This document shows, piece by piece, positions 4,704 through 11,322 of a stretch of DNA of 21,873 nucleotides (the stretch's first letter is position 1; every line of letters begins with the position of its first letter). The position numbers were made by a program, and so were the translations under genes. This DNA is from a virus. Its lineage: Duplodnaviria > Heunggongvirae > Uroviricota > Caudoviricetes. A model generated the notes under the pieces. It saw nothing but the letters and a program-made list of their open reading frames with translations. It was not told the origin of the DNA and did no database searches. The stretch spans positions 1 through 21,873 of the IMG/VR virus record IMGVR_UViG_2529293246_000003, one strand, 5' to 3'.

Positions 4704-5243
4704 ATGCAACCACTTACATACCAACAGACTAGCGGATTTAGCCCGACTGCGGTGATAAATCGTTCTCAAACAAAACAGGTGCCAGGCCACGAAAAAATCC
4801 GTGATGCCGTCCGCGCCTGGTCGGCTGCAGATAATCAGGATGTTGTTGCCGCACTCATTGTGAATGAGTATCGGGAGCAGGGCGGCGGCACCATCGATTT
4901 CCCTGATGATGTCAGCCGTGCACGCCAGAAGCTGTTCCGCTTCCTCGATAACAAATTCGATTCTGAAAAATACCGAAATAACGTGCGTGAACTGACCCCG
5001 GCAATTCTGGCGGTACTACCGCTGGAATATCGCGGTTACCTGGTTGAGCAGGATAGCTTCATGACTCGGTTGGCTGAAATGGAAAAGGAACTCAGTGAGG
5101 CAAAACAGGCTGTCATTCTCAACGCACCACGCCACCAGAAACTGAAGGAGATGAGTGAAGGTATTGTGTCGATGTTTCGTGTGGACCCGGATCTGGCTGG
5201 TCCATTGATGGCGATGGTTACCACCATGTTGGGGGCAATATGA
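4704..5243 (+). CDS. YdaT-family protein (CII-like regulator slot)
   Basis: 179-aa ORF between cro and O, AAGGAG Shine-Dalgarno; the central region (EYREQGGG...LTPAILAVLPLEYRGYL) resembles the Rac prophage YdaT family as I recall it. Confidence 0.65.
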   Translation: MQPLTYQQTSGFSPTAVINRSQTKQVPGHEKIRDAVRAWSAADNQDVVAALIVNEYREQGGGTIDFPDDVSRARQKLFRFLDNKFDSEKYRNNVRELTPAILAVLPLEYRGYLVEQDSFMTRLAEMEKELSEAKQAVILNAPRHQKLKEMSEGIVSMFRVDPDLAGPLMAMVTTMLGAI

Positions 5244-5329
5244 CAGGTTCAAAAATGGCGAAAGTCGGTCTGCGGGAACAGAACCGACTTTCAGGTGCAA
5301 ATCGTAACACACTCATTGCGGGAGGAATT

Positions 5330-6259
5330 ATGGCAAACACTGCTGAGATATTCAATTTTCCTGTGCCGGATGCGGCACAAAAGGAGCCGCGCGTGGCAGA
5401 TCTCGATGATGGTTATACGCGCATTGCAAATGAGTTGCTGGAAGCTGTAATGCTGGCCGGATTAACACAGCACCAGCTTCTGGTCTTCCTGGCTGTCATG
5501 CGCAAAACATATGGCTTTAATAAAAAACTGGATTGGGTGAGCAACGAGCAACTTTCCGAGTTGACCGGGATATTGCCGCACAAGTGTTCTGCTGCAAAAA
5601 GTGCTCTGGTAAAGCGTGGGATTTTTATTCAGAGCGGGCGGAATATAGGCATTAATAATGTGGTCAGTGAATGGTCAACATTACCCGAATCAGGTAAGAA
5701 AAATAAAGTTTACCTGAAAGAGGTAAATTTACCTGAATCAGGTAAGAAAAGTTTACCCAAATCAGGTAAAGGCACTTACCCGAATCAGGTAAACACAAAA
5801 GACAAACTAACAAAAGACAATATAAAACCTTATTCGTCCGAGAATTCTGGCGAATCCTCTGACCTGCCAGAAAACGACCTTCCTGTGGTGAAAGCGGATG
5901 CTGCGATTCAGAGCGGCAGCAAGTGGGGGACAGCAGAAGACCTGACCGCCGCAGAGTGGATGTTTGATATGGTGAAGACCATCGCGCCATCAGCCAGAAA
6001 ACCGAATTTTGCAGGGTGGGCTAACGATATCCGTCTGATGCGTGAACGTGATGGACGTAACCACCGCGACATGTGTGTACTGTTCCGCTGGGCCTGCCAG
6101 GACAACTTCTGGTCCGGTAACGTGCTGAGTCCGGCCAAACTCCGCGACAAGTGGACCCAGCTCGAAATCAACCGGAACAAGCAACAGGCTGGCGTGACAG
6201 CCGGAAAATCAAAACTCGACCTGACAAACACTGACTGGATTTATGGGGTGGATTTATGA
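5330..6259 (+). CDS. O: replication initiator O (lambda O-like)
   Basis: N-terminus MANTAEIFNF...VADLDDGYTRIANELLEA parallels lambda O; GGAGG at 5321-5325 ahead of ATG 5330 (the track's 5240 start is an unsupported extension); iterons lie inside the gene; the stop overlaps the P start. Confidence 0.9.
   Translation: MANTAEIFNFPVPDAAQKEPRVADLDDGYTRIANELLEAVMLAGLTQHQLLVFLAVMRKTYGFNKKLDWVSNEQLSELTGILPHKCSAAKSALVKRGIFIQSGRNIGINNVVSEWSTLPESGKKNKVYLKEVNLPESGKKSLPKSGKGTYPNQVNTKDKLTKDNIKPYSSENSGESSDLPENDLPVVKADAAIQSGSKWGTAEDLTAAEWMFDMVKTIAPSARKPNFAGWANDIRLMRERDGRNHRDMCVLFRWACQDNFWSGNVLSPAKLRDKWTQLEINRNKQQAGVTAGKSKLDLTNTDWIYGVDL
5682..5792. repeat. origin iterons (five copies of a ~16-bp TACCyrAATCAGGTAA unit) followed by an A/T-rich tract
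   Basis: Copies at 5682-5697, 5711-5726 (degenerate), 5730-5745, 5754-5769 and 5777-5792; each has palindromic TTACC...GGTAA ends; A/T-rich tract at 5793-5830. Same layout as ori-lambda inside O. Confidence 0.75.
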
Positions 6260-6957
6260 AAAACATCGCCGCACAGATGGTTAACTTTGACCGTGAGCAG
6301 ATGTGCCGGATCGCCAATAACATGCCGGAACAGTACGACGAAAAGCCGCAGGTACAGCAGGTAGCGCAGATCATCAACGGTGTATTCAGCCAGTTGCTGG
6401 CAACTTTCCCTGCGAGCCTGGCTAACCGTGACCAGAACGAACTGAACGAAATTCGCCGCCAGTGGGTTCTGGCTTTCCGGGAAAACGGGATCACCACAAT
6501 GGAACAGGTTAACGCTGGAATGCGCGTAGCCCGTCGGCAGAATCGACCATTCCTGCCATCACCCGGGCAGTTTGTCGCCTGGTGCCGGGAAGAAGCATCC
6601 GTTACCGCCGGGCTGCCAAACGCCAGCGAGCTGGTTGATATGGTTTACGAGTATTGCCGGAAGCGCGGGCTGTATCCGGATGCAGAGTCTTATCCGTGGA
6701 AATCAAACGCGCACTACTGGCTGGTTACCAACCTGTATCAGAACATGCGGGCCAATGCGTTGACTGACTCGGAATTACGGCGCAAGGCTGCCGATGAACT
6801 TGCCCATATGACTGCGAGAATTAACCGTGGTGAGGCTATACCTGAACCAGTAAAACAACTTCCTGTCATGGGCGGTAGACCTCTAAATCGTGCACAGGCT
6901 CTGGCGAAGATTGCAGAAATCAAAGCTAAGTTCGGACTGAAAGGAGCCAGTGTATGA
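6256..6957 (+). CDS. P: replication protein P (DnaB helicase loader)
   Basis: 233-aa ORF, recognisably lambda P nearly residue for residue (MKNIAAQMVNFDREQM...); ATGA overlap with the O stop. Confidence 0.95.
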   Translation: MKNIAAQMVNFDREQMCRIANNMPEQYDEKPQVQQVAQIINGVFSQLLATFPASLANRDQNELNEIRRQWVLAFRENGITTMEQVNAGMRVARRQNRPFLPSPGQFVAWCREEASVTAGLPNASELVDMVYEYCRKRGLYPDAESYPWKSNAHYWLVTNLYQNMRANALTDSELRRKAADELAHMTARINRGEAIPEPVKQLPVMGGRPLNRAQALAKIAEIKAKFGLKGASV

Positions 6958-7247
6958 CGGGAAAAGAAGCAATTATTCATTACCTGGGGACGCATAAGAG
7001 CTTCTGTGCGCAGGACGTTGCTGCGGTAACAGGCGCAACAGTAACCAGCATAAATCAGGCTGCGGCTAAAATGGCGCGGACAGGAATCTTAGTTATTGAT
7101 GGTAAGGTCTGGCGAACGGTGTATTACCGGTTCGCTACCAGGGAAGAACGGGAAGGAAAGGTGAGCACGAATCTGATTTTCAAGGAGTGTCGCCAGAGTG
7201 CCGCGATGAAGCGGGTGTTGGCATTTTATCGCGGCAATTTTCAATAG
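6954..7247 (+). CDS. ren: Ren protein
   Basis: 97-aa ORF recognisably lambda Ren (MTGKEAIIHYLGTH...); overlaps the P stop. Confidence 0.9.
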   Translation: MTGKEAIIHYLGTHKSFCAQDVAAVTGATVTSINQAAAKMARTGILVIDGKVWRTVYYRFATREEREGKVSTNLIFKECRQSAAMKRVLAFYRGNFQ

Positions 7248-7284
7248 ACTATGTACATAAAAATATCATTTTTTTAATACATGT

Positions 7285-7491
7285 CTAATTATTGGACGAA
7301 ATTGGTTTTTGCTTTGGTTTAGTTAGCCTAGCAATCAAGCCAGAGGCAATAATGATGATCCAAGCAATTTGATGCAATGCTACTCCAATATAAGAACCTT
7401 TATAGATAATAAAGGCATAGATCGCTAGAAACGAAATAAATATCCATAACGAAAGTTGATAAATTTTGGCGCGCATATTTAATCCAATCAA
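7285..7491 (-). CDS. putative small membrane protein (two predicted TM helices)
   Basis: 68-aa ORF (TTG start at 7491, or ATG at 7476 giving 63 aa); very hydrophobic and AT-rich; no convincing Shine-Dalgarno, so it is uncertain. Confidence 0.3.
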   Translation of the reverse strand: MIGLNMRAKIYQLSLWIFISFLAIYAFIIYKGSYIGVALHQIAWIIIIASGLIARLTKPKQKPISSNN

Positions 7492-7732
7492 TCAGAAAGA
7501 CGAGTAATCATAGAGGTACTATCACCCGGGTAACTATTGCTATTATGAACGGATAGGATAGAGGCTTCAATAACATATGCATCAAGTATGATGGAATATG
7601 TAGGTGAAAATGACTTGTGTCAAATTTGTGGAAATGAGTACCATGTTTCTCTGAAATTGATGTCGTTAATGGCTAGTGATAGTGAACTTTTTTACTTTAT
7701 AATTCCTTTGGTTATAACAATAAGGTAAATTT

Positions 7733-8293
7733 ATGAAGAAGATAATATTATTAGCCATGATTATTGGTTCTTTAACAGGTTGCGCTAGTGTGCCACCATT
7801 GAATTTTTCAACACCTAACGTGGGAGTTAGCCAGAAAAAAATAGATGCTGAAATTAAGTCATTAACGGTATCACTTGCTCGTCCAGATGAGCAGAAAGGG
7901 GATATCACTGCTGGTATGGAGGCTATAACTCCAATTTGGCGTGAATCTTTGCAGGAAGCACTCGACCGAATGACTATTTTTCGTGATAGTTCACCAAATA
8001 CGGTTAGCTTAAATGTTAAAGTGTTGGCTCTTGACGTTCCTGCTTTTGGTGTTTCAATGACAACTAAAGCAATTGCAAGGTATGAAATAATCAACCGTGC
8101 GAATGGTGATATTATATATACGCAGGATATTGAGTCTACCGGTACTGTTCCAGCCAGTTACGCATTCTACGGTATTGTTCGAGCACGCGAATCTGTTAAT
8201 CGCGCGGTGCAAAACAACATAACGCAGTTCTTGCAAGCATTAGAAAGTGTTGATCTTTCTCGTCCAATGTTTCCTGTTAGGGTAGCTAAATGA
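7733..8293 (+). CDS. putative lipoprotein, unknown family
   Basis: 186-aa ORF with signal peptide and lipobox (MKKIILLAMIIGSLTG-C); AAGG Shine-Dalgarno; its stop overlaps the next gene's start; AT-rich. Confidence 0.75.
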   Translation: MKKIILLAMIIGSLTGCASVPPLNFSTPNVGVSQKKIDAEIKSLTVSLARPDEQKGDITAGMEAITPIWRESLQEALDRMTIFRDSSPNTVSLNVKVLALDVPAFGVSMTTKAIARYEIINRANGDIIYTQDIESTGTVPASYAFYGIVRARESVNRAVQNNITQFLQALESVDLSRPMFPVRVAK

Positions 8294-8742
8294 AGCGATT
8301 ATTCGTAATTGCTCCACTCTTAGTGTTGGTTGGATGCGCACAAAATATATCGCCAAATAGTTATTCTGTTGGCTCTGTGGGCATGGTTAATCGAACTATC
8401 GCTGGTACAGTTATTAGTGCTAGGGGGGTTGATATCAGTGGGACTTCCGCGTTAGGCGGGACTGCTGGGGCTGCCGTGGGGGCAACCGCTGGTTCTGCGC
8501 TTGGTGGGGGAGTTCGTTCTAATATCGTTGGTGCCGTTGGTGGTGCAGTCATTGGTGGTATTGCCGGGGCAGCAATCGAATCTTCAGCAACAAAACAAAC
8601 AGGCATGGAATATGTTGTCGAAACTGAGAATGGGAATTTAATGACCATTGTTCAAGGCAAAGATCCGTTATTTACTCAAGGAAGTAAGGTCCTTGTTTTA
8701 TACGGAAACCCTTCTCGCATAATAACAGACCCGCGTCACTAA
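8290..8742 (+). CDS. glycine-zipper outer-membrane lipoprotein (SlyB/Pcp-like)
   Basis: 150-aa ORF with lipobox (LVLVG-C) and a GxxxG-rich glycine-zipper segment (GTAGAAVGATAGSALGGGV...GAVGGAVIGGIAGAAIE), overall resembling the E. coli SlyB/Pcp architecture from memory. Confidence 0.8.
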   Translation: MKRLFVIAPLLVLVGCAQNISPNSYSVGSVGMVNRTIAGTVISARGVDISGTSALGGTAGAAVGATAGSALGGGVRSNIVGAVGGAVIGGIAGAAIESSATKQTGMEYVVETENGNLMTIVQGKDPLFTQGSKVLVLYGNPSRIITDPRH

Positions 8743-8788
8743 CATACCTTTTGATTTTGTAAAATCAATTCGTAATAATAAAGTCATC

Positions 8789-8903
8789 GGAGCTTGAACA
8801 ACTCCGGTGACTTCTGCGCTAAACGGGGACGTTTATGCGCACACACAATCCAAACTCTCATCTCCATTCACAGATGCAGAAATGCACCTACGATTTTTTA
8901 CAT
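8789..8903 (+). repeat. direct repeat copy 1 (~115 bp)
   Basis: GGAGCTTGAACAACTCCGGTGACTTCTGCGCTAAACGGGGACGTTTATGCGCACA...CGATTTTTT; near-identical to 10723-10837 with a handful of mismatches by eye. Confidence 0.85.
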
Positions 8904-9318
8904 TCGGTGTTTTACTTCGACAGCCAGAATTGGGAGTCTCTATTCGTCTGGCGGCTAAAGGTGATATGGAAATCGTTATGTTTTGGCCTGAGGTAGTTGT
9001 AACTGTTGTAGCAGCTATGGCTGTGATCATCATGGTGTCCATTTACTGGGGTTGACGACATGATTTATCCGGCGCTATATTCTGTGCGTTGCCGCAAAAT
9101 CGGCACACGGGATTGGCGTCCCGGGATACTACTCAACGCATACCGCGTTAAGCGGTTTTTTTGTGCGCTAAGCACGGCTATGCCCAAATTATGGTGGGCT
9201 GTGTGAGGGCTTCTTCGGAAGCGCCGGGTTTGAGTAGCCGGTTACGCCAACCTTACACAGTTCACCACCAGTCGATTGGCGTCGTTGGTGGTGATGGTTA
9301 ACCTGATGAGGTGATACT

Positions 9319-9927
9319 ATGACTACTCAATTAGCATTCCACAAAACGACGTTTACCCCGATTTGCCACAATAACAGAATTTGGCTTACTGCCACTGAAG
9401 TTGGTTTAGCACTGGAATATGCGGACGATAAAGCAGTTCAGCGCATTTACTCTCGGCACTCAGATGAATTCACAGATATGATGACAAGGGTGGTCAAAGT
9501 GACCACCCCTCGTGGAATGCAGGAGTCTCGAGTATTTAGCCTTCGCGGAGCCCATTTGATCGCCATGTTTGCTCGTACTCCTGTGGCCAAAGAATTCCGC
9601 CGCTGGGTTCTGGATATTCTCGATCGAGAAGTTCAACAATCCCCAATCACAAAACAATTCACTGATAACGAACTTTGCACACTCGCCTGGTTATGGCGAG
9701 CAAGTGATACGATGTTAACCGCCTGCCAGAACGTTACGCCCCTTCTTCAGGTCGCAGAGCATCGCGAAGCAGGTAGATTCACTTCAATCGAACAAGAATA
9801 TCCTCGGATACTCAACAGGGCGCGAGAAATCCTTGCCAGAGAAACGGCGCATGTAAAATTCCAACCGTGGCAGGATGATAAGTGGAGTCGTGTGTTACCA
9901 TATTTCCGTCAGAATCTGTTGCAATAA
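9319..9927 (+). CDS. Bro-N domain phage antirepressor-like protein
   Basis: 202-aa ORF with GAGGTGA Shine-Dalgarno; the N-terminal 100 aa fit the Bro-N/AntA pattern (TFTPICHNNRIWLTATEVGLALEY...SLRGAHLIAMFARTPVAKEFRRWVLDIL). Confidence 0.8.
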   Translation: MTTQLAFHKTTFTPICHNNRIWLTATEVGLALEYADDKAVQRIYSRHSDEFTDMMTRVVKVTTPRGMQESRVFSLRGAHLIAMFARTPVAKEFRRWVLDILDREVQQSPITKQFTDNELCTLAWLWRASDTMLTACQNVTPLLQVAEHREAGRFTSIEQEYPRILNRAREILARETAHVKFQPWQDDKWSRVLPYFRQNLLQ

Positions 9928-9946
9928 AGTCACTAGTTAGAAATAC

Positions 9947-9987
9947 TGCCAGCATTCTGCGATGACGGAAGTGCTGGCATTTTTTTT
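9947..9987 (+). terminator. rho-independent terminator after the antirepressor gene
   Basis: Stem TGCCAGCA(9947-9954)/TGCTGGCA(9972-9979) extended by TTC/GAA, followed by a run of 8 T (9980-9987). Confidence 0.65.
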
Positions 9988-10162
9988 GGTAATGTGCGAG
10001 TCCATTTCATAAAATACGGGTACTGGAACTGGACGATATAATCTAAAAGATACCATTATCAGTAGCATTAAAATCGCTATGTGCCGATACGGATATAAAT
10101 TATATTGATTGTTCACATACCTTATTGGATATTACTGAGGGGTGTTTATATAAGGTGTAACG

Positions 10163-10672
10163 ATGATGTGGAACTTTGACAGTGCCGACTTAAGTGCAAT
10201 AGCAGCAGGCATTTCTGCGTTTGGCACATTAGCCGCAGCGGGGTCGGCGCTTGCAAGTTGGTACACGTCAAAAAAAGCGCTGCAGCTACAAAATAGAGTT
10301 TACCTTTATGAGTCTTTAAAGGCTTGCGCTGAGAGAGCCAATTCATCAGCTAAAGATAAGCGCGGATCTGAATGGAGCGTTAATGATGCAGCGGATATCA
10401 TCAGGTGCCTAGTACGGGCGATGGAGATCATCAAGCAGGATAGCCAGCAGAAAGAAGGTAATCAGGCATTAATGTTGAAACAGTACTTTGTTAATCTGCT
10501 AATAATGGAACTGTACGAGGAAGTTCATAACGGTGATGCGGCTGATTCTGTTTTTAAAAGTACGGAACCTACACAAGTACTTGATAACTTATGGAGCAAA
10601 TGGCAGGAGGCTATAGCTTTTTTTGATATTTGGAATTACCCAGTTGCGACTGAGGAAGACTTGGCAGACTAA
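10163..10672 (+). CDS. hypothetical membrane-anchored protein (single N-terminal TM helix, acidic soluble C-terminal domain)
   Basis: 169-aa ORF; AAGGTG Shine-Dalgarno; preceded by the terminator and an AT-rich promoter-like stretch (TTGATT at 10106-10111); TM segment LSAIAAGISAFGTLAAAGSALASWY; no family recognised. Confidence 0.7.
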   Translation: MMWNFDSADLSAIAAGISAFGTLAAAGSALASWYTSKKALQLQNRVYLYESLKACAERANSSAKDKRGSEWSVNDAADIIRCLVRAMEIIKQDSQQKEGNQALMLKQYFVNLLIMELYEEVHNGDAADSVFKSTEPTQVLDNLWSKWQEAIAFFDIWNYPVATEEDLAD

Positions 10673-10722
10673 TTTTCAGCACATTTGATTTCCAATAATC
10701 AACCAGCCATAATCATGCCATT

Positions 10723-10837
10723 GGAGCTTGAACAACTCCGGTGACTTCTGCGCTAAACGGGGACGTTTATGCGCACATACAATCCAAACTCTCTTCTCCC
10801 TTCACAGATGCAGAAATGCACCTGCGATTTTTTGCAT
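10723..10837 (+). repeat. direct repeat copy 2 (~115 bp)
   Basis: Partner of 8789-8903; this copy sits immediately upstream of the ybcN-like gene. Confidence 0.85.
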
Positions 10838-10870
10838 CCAGCGTCTGACCTCTGCGGAGGTGAAGCGTGA
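10769..10870 (+). CDS. 33-codon small ORF inside repeat copy 2 (YlcH-like position)
   Basis: ATG 10769, [33 protein letters not shown]; its stop TGA (10868-10870) overlaps the GTG start of the next gene (GTGA). DLP12 carries a ~33-aa ylcH immediately upstream of ybcN as I recall; copy 1 has a diverged version starting at 8835. Confidence 0.35.
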
Positions 10871-11322
10871 ACCTACCACAAGATGGCATCAAACTGCATC
10901 GCGGTAACTTCACCGCTATCGGCCAGCAGATCCAGCCTTATCTGGAGGACGGAAAATGCTTTCGCATGGTGCTTAAACCGTGGCGTGAGAAACGCAGTCT
11001 TTCCCAGAATGCACTCAGCCACATGTGGTACAGCGAAATCAGTGAATACCTCATCAGCAGGGGGAAATCGTTCGCTACCGCAGCATGGGTAAAAGATGCT
11101 CTCAAACACACATACCTCGGTTATGAAACCAAGGACCTGGTTGATGTCGTAACCGGCGAAATCACTACTATCCAGTCGTTACGCCATACTTCCGATCTTG
11201 ATACCGGAGAGATGTATGTCTTCCTGTGTAAGGTTGAAGCCTGGGCGATGAATATTGGCTGCCACCTGACTATTCCGCAGAGCTGCGAGTTCCAGCTGCT
11301 GCGCGACAAGCAGGAGGCGTAA
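10867..11322 (+). CDS. ybcN: NinB/Orf-family recombination mediator (DLP12 YbcN-like)
   Basis: 151-aa ORF with GTG start and GGAGG at 10856-10860; the [15 protein letters not shown] segment matches the NinB-family motif; followed by ninE as in lambdoid nin regions. Confidence 0.75.

Follow-up and report, generated by a model that had tools for sequence, protein, structure and literature searches.

Introduction

To our knowledge, glycine-zipper lipoproteins of the SlyB type have only recently been recognized as organizers of stress-induced nanodomains in the outer membrane, and so far only as the products of stand-alone genes. Under outer-membrane stress, SlyB encircles outer-membrane proteins together with lipid in rings, or nanodomains (Janssens et al. 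2024, as summarized in the preprint 10.64898/2025.12.22.696046), and the proteins enclosed are, in the preprint's account, BamA, OmpF/C, and LptD (10.64898/2025.12.22.696046; PDB 7ojf, "SlyB13-BamA"). The slyB gene of Escherichia coli K-12 (b1641) is a single gene located beside slyA, without a neighbor resembling the partner gene described below. Here, we examined a relative of slyB, referred to as lipoB, which is preceded by and coupled to the gene for a second lipoprotein, referred to as lipoA. The 2 genes are located in a low-GC (guanine plus cytosine) block at positions 7248 to 8750 of a stretch of 21,873 nucleotides, hereafter called the window, which corresponds to positions 1 to 21,873 of the IMG/VR virus record IMGVR_UViG_2529293246_000003. 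The window represents a lambdoid E. coli prophage, with exo-bet-gam-kil, cI, cro, a cII-like gene, O, P, ren, a nin-like region, Q, lysis genes, and terminase.

Other described systems offer partial parallels. The lambdoid morons Bor, Cor, and Llp are also small lipoprotein genes of temperate phages with an atypical composition and a patchy presence, and bor occurs in the same prophages as the pair. However, none of them is homologous to lipoA or lipoB, which form a 2-gene unit with a much higher degree of conservation and a broader distribution beyond phages. TraT, the IncF surface-exclusion and serum-resistance lipoprotein (PDB 9fsm/9e2v), is encoded by a chromosomal gene that has repeatedly been co-opted by mobile elements (PMC11733297). 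In a similar manner, lipoA and lipoB encode putative chromosomal outer-membrane lipoproteins that have apparently been taken up many times by such elements. In the libraries and literature searched, including searches for prophage SlyB and for the PhiR30/PhiR26 phages, we found no description of a system with this pairing of lipoA and lipoB, nor of its breadth or its recurrent capture by phages. This agrees with an earlier note on the window, prepared from the sequence alone, which could not match the pairing to a described system.

A coupled lipoprotein gene pair in a low-GC block

The ren gene ends with its stop codon at position 7247, and the low-GC block starts directly thereafter with an AT-rich leader of 485 bp (7248 to 7732, GC 0.32). 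The leader is followed on the plus strand by lipoA (7733 to 8293) and lipoB (8290 to 8742), which overlap by the sequence ATGA at 8290 to 8293, where the stop codon of lipoA overlaps the start codon of lipoB. LipoA consists of 186 amino acids (MKKIILLAMIIGSLTGC), with a predicted signal peptide at residues 1 to 16 and the lipobox LTGC, ending in Cys17. LipoB consists of 150 amino acids (MKRLFVIAPLLVLVGC), with a predicted signal peptide at residues 1 to 15 and the lipobox LVGC, ending in Cys16. Both signal peptides have a basic start followed by a hydrophobic segment that ends in the lipobox, and the lipobox cysteine was invariant in 32 homologs of LipoA and in 31 homologs of LipoB. The cysteine is followed by alanine in both proteins, which therefore lack an Asp inner-membrane retention signal, and both are probably located in the outer membrane.

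The GC content was 0.405 in lipoA, 0.472 in lipoB, and 0.398 in the block as a whole, compared to 0.505 in the left flank (5240 to 7247) and 0.464 in the right flank (8751 to 11322). The GC content at third codon positions was 0.30 in lipoA and 0.34 in lipoB versus 0.50 to 0.585 in O, P, and ren. In composition, the block is foreign to its surroundings, and it was probably acquired horizontally. The earlier note had described a low-GC block of 1.5 kb that contains 2 coupled lipoprotein genes, with the lipoboxes LTGC and LVGC, as well as a divergent open reading frame (ORF) of 63 to 68 amino acids, and the ORFs, the GC values, and the ATGA overlap all confirmed this description.

LipoB as a full-length paralog of SlyB

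A phmmer comparison of LipoB with E. coli SlyB (PDB 7ojf/7ojg) yielded an E-value of 1.3e-14 across residues 2 to 149. The 2 proteins were 33% identical over the full length in a BLASTP alignment to SlyB of strain K-12, and were aligned by hhalign with a probability of 98.7%. SlyB belongs to the glycine zipper 2TM family (PF05433/PF13488), and LipoB agrees with SlyB in length, in the lipobox, and in the succession of structural elements. In the AlphaFold model, an N-terminal β-hairpin is followed by a Gly/Ala-rich glycine-zipper helical hairpin (approximately residues 55 to 101) and a C-terminal β-domain, and the sole significant Foldseek match to this model was chain A of 7ojf (SlyB13-BamA, E=9.2e-9). 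The scores of LipoB fell below the Pfam gathering scores of PF05433 (21.1 vs. 24.2 bits) and PF13488 (16.9 vs. 25 bits), and many close homologs of LipoB carry precomputed matches to PF13488 or PF05433. LipoB alone is a new member of a known family, and the similarity extends beyond the glycine zipper, such that it is a full-length paralog of SlyB. The earlier note had called the second lipoprotein SlyB-like on account of its glycine zipper, which was correct and, given the full-length alignment, an understatement.

In contrast to the single slyB gene of K-12, genes of the lipoB clade are nearly always preceded by and coupled to lipoA. LipoA and LipoB matched the PHROG families 12521 and 13877, respectively, both of which are listed as having an unknown function.

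The family and predicted fold of LipoA

Sequence searches with LipoA against Pfam, NCBIfam, PADLOC, and PDB gave no meaningful matches. Homologs of LipoA were nevertheless abundant, with 512 clusters obtained in a word-indexed search and 934 representative clusters obtained with a profile. The sequence identities were 55% to 85% across Enterobacterales, Xanthomonadaceae, Alcaligenaceae, Comamonadaceae, Oxalobacteraceae, and alphaproteobacterial metagenome-assembled genomes (MAGs), and about 46% in Chthoniobacteraceae. Among the elements retained in the family are an N-terminal tether (PPLNFSVPNVG), the motif ARYE..DR, a helix (RARESxNRxxQNN), and KPMFP at the C-terminus. As judged from these alignments, the family is unusually conserved for a small lipoprotein.

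Profile and structure searches of the 186-amino acid protein, which had been suggested in the earlier note, identified no Pfam family for LipoA and yielded a confident model (predicted local distance difference test, pLDDT, 84.2; predicted template modeling score, pTM, 0.78) with the topology β-α-β-β-β-α. This model predicts that LipoA has the fold of LptE, PqiC, PelC, CsgG, and TraT, which are lipoproteins that make rings or plugs at the outer membrane. However, the identity to LptE, PqiC (DUF330, XCC0632), PelC, and the periplasmic domain of CsgG was just 8% to 15%, and the Pfam models for LptE, PqiC, PelC, and CsgG matched neither LipoA nor its 31 homologs. No genes for LptD, Pqi/MCE, Pel, or curli proteins were found among the neighbors of lipoA and lipoB. 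The putative partner of LipoA is a helical glycine-zipper lipoprotein, whereas the partners of proteins of the LptE and PqiC type are a β-barrel or an MCE needle. The ring domain of TraT shares the predicted fold with LipoA and has no sequence homology to it. TraT is a single chain, in which the ring domain is extracellular and is accompanied by a ring of membrane helices, and its comparison with LipoA and LipoB is an analogy only. The structural similarity between LipoB and TraT was not significant (E=0.44).

Two names in the databases were not supported for LipoA. The label "UDP-N-acetylglucosamine acyltransferase" is a propagated one that no Pfam or NCBIfam family backs. The label "YajG family lipoprotein", used in some RefSeq records, likewise lacked support, since 0 of 32 members of the family matched PF03923 even at E≤10 and NCBIfam gave no match. 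YajG (E. coli b0434) and LipoA are alike in size and are both lipoproteins, and a single pairwise BLASTP alignment was weak (26% identity over 166 residues, E=2e-4). The corresponding hhalign alignment, with a probability of 74.7%, covered only the first 53 columns, that is, the signal peptide and the N-terminus. A match to the NCBIfam model for IglE (E=0.039, residues 3 to 65) was similarly confined to the signal peptide and the N-terminus, and was dismissed. The misnamed records include WP_000720581.1, XSB42265.1, and their homologs, and the names have spread over NCBI and UniRef.

Longer proteins of 338 to 644 amino acids with a LipoA domain were also identified, none of which contained a known domain or represented a fusion of LipoA and LipoB. 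In 3 of these (P0301, P0325, and P0249; 440 to 644 amino acids), the LipoA domain lacked the lipobox cysteine and was followed by a long, charged, coiled-coil-like C-terminal extension without any Pfam domain. Two of the 3 proteins carried an ordinary signal peptide.

A widespread and conserved 2-gene cassette

A scan of one genome per species identified 62 loci with a relative of lipoA. A relative of lipoB was located immediately downstream of lipoA in 57 of these, and the ATGA overlap was present in 25 of the 39 loci in which both genes were cleanly called. In look-ups that started from lipoB, lipoA was found upstream in 3 of 3 cases. The pair was present in alpha-, beta-, and gammaproteobacteria and beyond, with sequence identities of 46% to 84% across phyla, and the LipoB family, with 581 clusters, was similar in size to the LipoA family.

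No third conserved gene was identified, since clustering of all flanking ORFs returned only lipoA and lipoB, and the nearest flanking ORFs (109 in total) were distributed over 74 Pfam families. Two flank clusters (2 and 5) consisted of ORFs antisense to the pair and overlapping it in GC-rich genomes, and were discarded as artifacts. The pair thus appears to be self-contained, as no third gene recurs and the flanks vary. A minority of the species loci were associated with phages or islands, as indicated by 4 CI-like repressors, transposases, and an integrase, while the rest had ordinary neighbors. The pair was essentially lacking from plasmids.

Among the enterobacterial copies, synonymous substitutions (dS) were saturated and the nonsynonymous substitution values (dN) ranged from 0.11 to 0.30, with dN/dS ratios of about 0.08 to 0.09 where these could be calculated. 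The pairwise divergences of lipoA and lipoB were correlated (r=0.84). Both genes are evidently under strong purifying selection, and the pair is best described, from these comparisons, as an old, translationally coupled, and widespread 2-gene cassette that is patchy and accessory rather than housekeeping. The earlier note had raised the alternative that the 2 proteins are common chromosomal paralogs with housekeeping roles, of which the chromosomal part was found to apply and the housekeeping part was not.

It was also noted that a region in Photorhabdus caribbeanensis (locus L049, 5268 to 6049), located about 0.7 kb downstream of a solitary lipoA gene, gave repeated peptides in several reading frames (e.g., FLSCLYGSE every ~20 residues), which suggests a CRISPR-like or other array with a period of ~60 bp.

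Repeated capture by temperate phages

Of 50,697 phage records, only PhiR30_1 carried the module, which was also found in 280 of 5426 complete E. coli genomes (~5%), always as a single chromosomal copy with at least 99% identity. The E. coli copies were found in lambdoid prophages only. With an atypical composition and a presence in some related phages and not in others, the block has the traits of a moron, as the earlier note had proposed. In 22 copies examined, the junction between the ren-like gene and ninB was the same, even where the upstream replication genes differed.

Among the viral contigs in IMG/VR, 16 further and more divergent copies were identified, with 54% to 73% identity. In these contigs, and in loci reached by way of lipoB, the pair was located between the genes for the tape-measure protein and a gpM-like minor tail protein in a siphophage with a full head-tail module of the HK97/lambda type, and immediately downstream of, and co-oriented with, the genes for CI-like repressors in 2 high-GC lineages. 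Genes in a position just downstream of a co-oriented CI-like repressor gene are transcribed in lysogens. In a third lineage, the pair was convergent with the gene for a CI-like repressor. Other copies were located just after the gene for the large terminase and, amid 4 toxin-antitoxin modules, in the nin region of a lambdoid prophage from Salmonella. The different sites indicate that the pair was captured independently by at least 5 unrelated lineages of temperate phages.

The toxin-antitoxin modules around the pair in Salmonella enterica (loci L109 and L110) were PaaA2/ParE, MazE/PemK, YefM/YoeB, and HigB with a helix-turn-helix protein. LipoA was called as a protein of 107 amino acids in L109 versus 201 amino acids in L110, and the gene is thus possibly disrupted in L109.

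The leader, the small ORF, and a candidate promoter

The leader of the block contains a small hydrophobic ORF on the minus strand (7285 to 7491) and an intergenic stretch of 241 bp upstream of lipoA. The ORF encodes 68 amino acids if translation starts at a TTG codon and 63 amino acids if it starts at the ATG codon at 7476, and it corresponds to a hypothetical protein of 63 amino acids in the annotation of phage PhiR30_1. With its 2 hydrophobic stretches, the predicted product may represent a small membrane protein, although the coding status of the ORF is unproven. It was never called by the Prokaryotic Genome Annotation Pipeline (PGAP) in the E. coli genomes, had no match in Pfam, NCBIfam, PHROG, or PADLOC, and its homologs in a database of 5.8 billion proteins were near-identical E. 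coli copies only. The leader was found in the same E. coli genomes as the lipoprotein pair (280 of 5426) and nowhere else, and it could not be aligned to the upstream regions of the copies in Klebsiella oxytoca, Edaphovirga, and Serratia. Both the small ORF and the AT-rich leader are therefore E. coli-specific orphans outside the conserved unit. On this point our results depart from the earlier note, which had counted the ORF as part of the moron: it was confined to the E. coli prophage lineage, with no homologs elsewhere.

A candidate sigma-70-like promoter, GTGATA-16-TATAAT, was identified on the plus strand at 7676 to 7703 by a consensus match only. It contains a perfect -10 element (TATAAT, 7698 to 7703), located 30 nucleotides upstream of the ATG codon of lipoA, and a weak -35 element. 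The sequence AAGG at 7722 to 7725 is a possible ribosome-binding site of lipoA. A shared promoter was sought by aligning the upstream DNA of 4 enterobacterial copies, which showed no conservation. The fixed junction between ren and ninB and the perfect TATAAT upstream of lipoA are in line with a lysogenic-conversion cassette, and the pair may be expressed in the lysogen.

Flanking features of the block

In the window, lipoB is separated from a ninB-like gene (10867 to 11322) by a mosaic segment of 2.1 kb, which was absent from PhiR30_1 and present in PhiR26_1, whereas ninB directly follows the pair in the 22 other copies. The placement of the block between ren and nin genes in the earlier note is thus correct on the left side and not on the right side in this window. 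The mosaic segment contains a C4 antisense RNA (9187 to 9272, 74.8 bits in Rfam), isrK (9090 to 9162, 58.7 bits in Rfam), and the c4 a1b1 targets (9075 to 9127), directly followed by an antirepressor-like ORF with Bro-N/P22_AR_C similarity (9319 to 9927). The region from 9075 to 9927 is an antisense-RNA immunity element of the P1/P7 type combined with an antirepressor-like ORF. Two further ORFs in the segment, at 8807 to 9055 and 10163 to 10672, matched phrog_4612 (a core of 57 amino acids) and phrog_1779 (169 amino acids), respectively, and had no match in Pfam, NCBIfam, or PADLOC.

No Rfam family matched within the module, and the repeats in the block were short families of 2 or 3 copies, of a kind often due to chance. 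An inverted repeat of 12 nucleotides (TGCCGCGATGAA / TTTATCGCGGCA, 92% complementary, with a spacer of 14 nucleotides) was observed at 7199 to 7236, at the 3' end of ren and just before the module boundary. It could be a structure involved in transcription termination or a recombination hot spot at the mosaic joint.

Discussion

We suggest that the block is a lysogenic-conversion cassette that carries an ancient operon for 2 cooperating outer-membrane lipoproteins. By homology to SlyB, LipoB would insert its glycine-zipper hairpin into the outer membrane and form rings around membrane proteins and lipid. LipoA, produced in a fixed ratio with LipoB through translational coupling, would be its dedicated partner, and might act at the periplasmic face of the membrane as an adaptor, a cap, or a nucleator that determines the content of the rings or the timing of their formation. 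Expression from the prophage would then give the lysogen a further module of the SlyB type and thereby a hardened or remodeled outer membrane, for example in the face of cationic peptides, chelators, bile, or complement. We infer a 2-component module because LipoB is a paralog of SlyB, the partner has a fold of the ring or plug type, the genes are linked and coupled, both are under purifying selection, and phages have captured them repeatedly. We consider the chances to be about even that such a module serves as lysogenic-conversion cargo, with a physical interaction between LipoA and LipoB, ring formation by LipoB, and an envelope phenotype as its expected properties. More tentatively, and with some doubt on our part, the 2 proteins may form a hitherto unrecognized assembly in which a SlyB-type helical ring is capped or plugged by a ring of the LptE fold, akin to a "split TraT-like cork", that is widespread in Proteobacteria and has repeatedly been co-opted by temperate phages to protect lysogens against phage adsorption, colicins, complement, or antimicrobial peptides.

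Several observations speak against this proposal. In 5 of the 62 species loci (Photorhabdus twice, Budvicia, a Brachymonas MAG, and Massilia horti) and in one group of viral contigs, lipoA was present without lipoB, and LipoA can thus stand alone. The correlated divergence of the 2 genes could result from shared history alone, and the confidence of the LipoB model was moderate (pLDDT 66.7). With regard to expression in the lysogen, promoter-like sites in the block did not exceed the number expected by chance (8 vs. 5.8 ± 2.4 in shuffled sequences), and no terminator was found downstream of lipoB. E. coli slyB has a PhoP-dependent promoter, whereas no PhoP box was identified at 7491 to 7733, near the candidate promoter of lipoA, and matches resembling PhoP boxes were at chance level over the whole window (9 vs. 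5.7 ± 2.6 expected). No phenotype of the pair was found in the literature searched.

Superinfection exclusion and envelope remodeling, the functions that the earlier note named for phage lipoproteins such as Cor, Llp, and Bor, are both hypotheses for the pair. The presence of the pair in at least 5 prophage lineages at typical moron sites, including sites beside repressor genes, is also consistent with a role in superinfection exclusion or phage defense. A SlyB-like ring targeted by LipoA would in that case sequester or mask a receptor for phages, colicins, or conjugation partners, as Cor and Llp do for FhuA and TraT does for mating contacts. The SlyB clients BamA, OmpF/C, and LptD are phage receptors (PMC12502783), the predicted fold of LipoA is that of the ring domain in the exclusion protein TraT, which has also been co-opted by mobile elements (PMC11733297), and the variable flanks, which have toxin-antitoxin systems and AAA-ATPases close by, are reminiscent of genomic islands. 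However, the PADLOC defense models gave no match, and neither Cor and Llp nor the other PHROGs of known function were related in sequence to the pair. Moreover, such high conservation between classes, together with strong purifying selection, is atypical of receptor-masking proteins, and the conservation fits a conserved envelope target better than a receptor mask in an arms race. Most of the species loci have ordinary chromosomal neighbors and no phage context. Overall, we regard exclusion, the main rival reading, as rather unlikely. Two independent lipoproteins that are merely co-transcribed, with LipoB as a spare SlyB and LipoA in an unrelated job such as the binding of lipid, lipopolysaccharide, or peptidoglycan, would explain the solitary lipoA genes in Photorhabdus, Budvicia, Massilia, and the viral contig group, as well as the LipoA variants that lack a lipobox or have long C-terminal extensions. 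Yet an arrangement in which the 2 genes adjoin in 57 of 62 loci from different phyla, with a conserved overlap of start and stop codons and no other retained neighbor, is hard to maintain without functional dependence, and the 2 families are similar in size. We therefore judge independence to be improbable.

Small lipoproteins that face the periplasm are common immunity proteins, and one locus was situated near PAAR/Tle1 genes. It is nonetheless very improbable that the pair confers immunity to a periplasm-acting toxin on mobile elements, such as a type VI secretion effector or a bacteriocin, since no toxin gene recurs beside the pair in the 62 + 16 loci, and LipoB is a clear SlyB homolog. A function in the lytic cycle, for example as a spanin-like protein pair or in the timing of lysis at the outer membrane, might be suspected from the phages in which the pair is placed inside operons for lytic growth (early-right and tail). 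This we hold to be the most far-fetched explanation, since the window contains a separate lysis cassette, as does PhiR30_1 (with an annotated holin, endolysin, and Rz), most copies are found in chromosomal contexts other than phages, and both proteins are putative outer-membrane lipoproteins, neither of which is the inner-membrane partner of a spanin.

The novelty lies in a distinct SlyB clade whose members nearly always occur in coupling with a second conserved lipoprotein, of which no description was found. A by-product of the analysis is that 2 propagated annotations of LipoA are not supported by the tests. If LipoA and LipoB do form a complex, the pair would represent partner-directed control or targeting of SlyB-type rings. 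It would also constitute a new class of lysogenic-conversion cargo that acts on the robustness of the envelope or on the accessibility of receptors, and would as such bear on phage therapy, on resistance to serum and antimicrobial peptides, and on the biology of the outer membrane.

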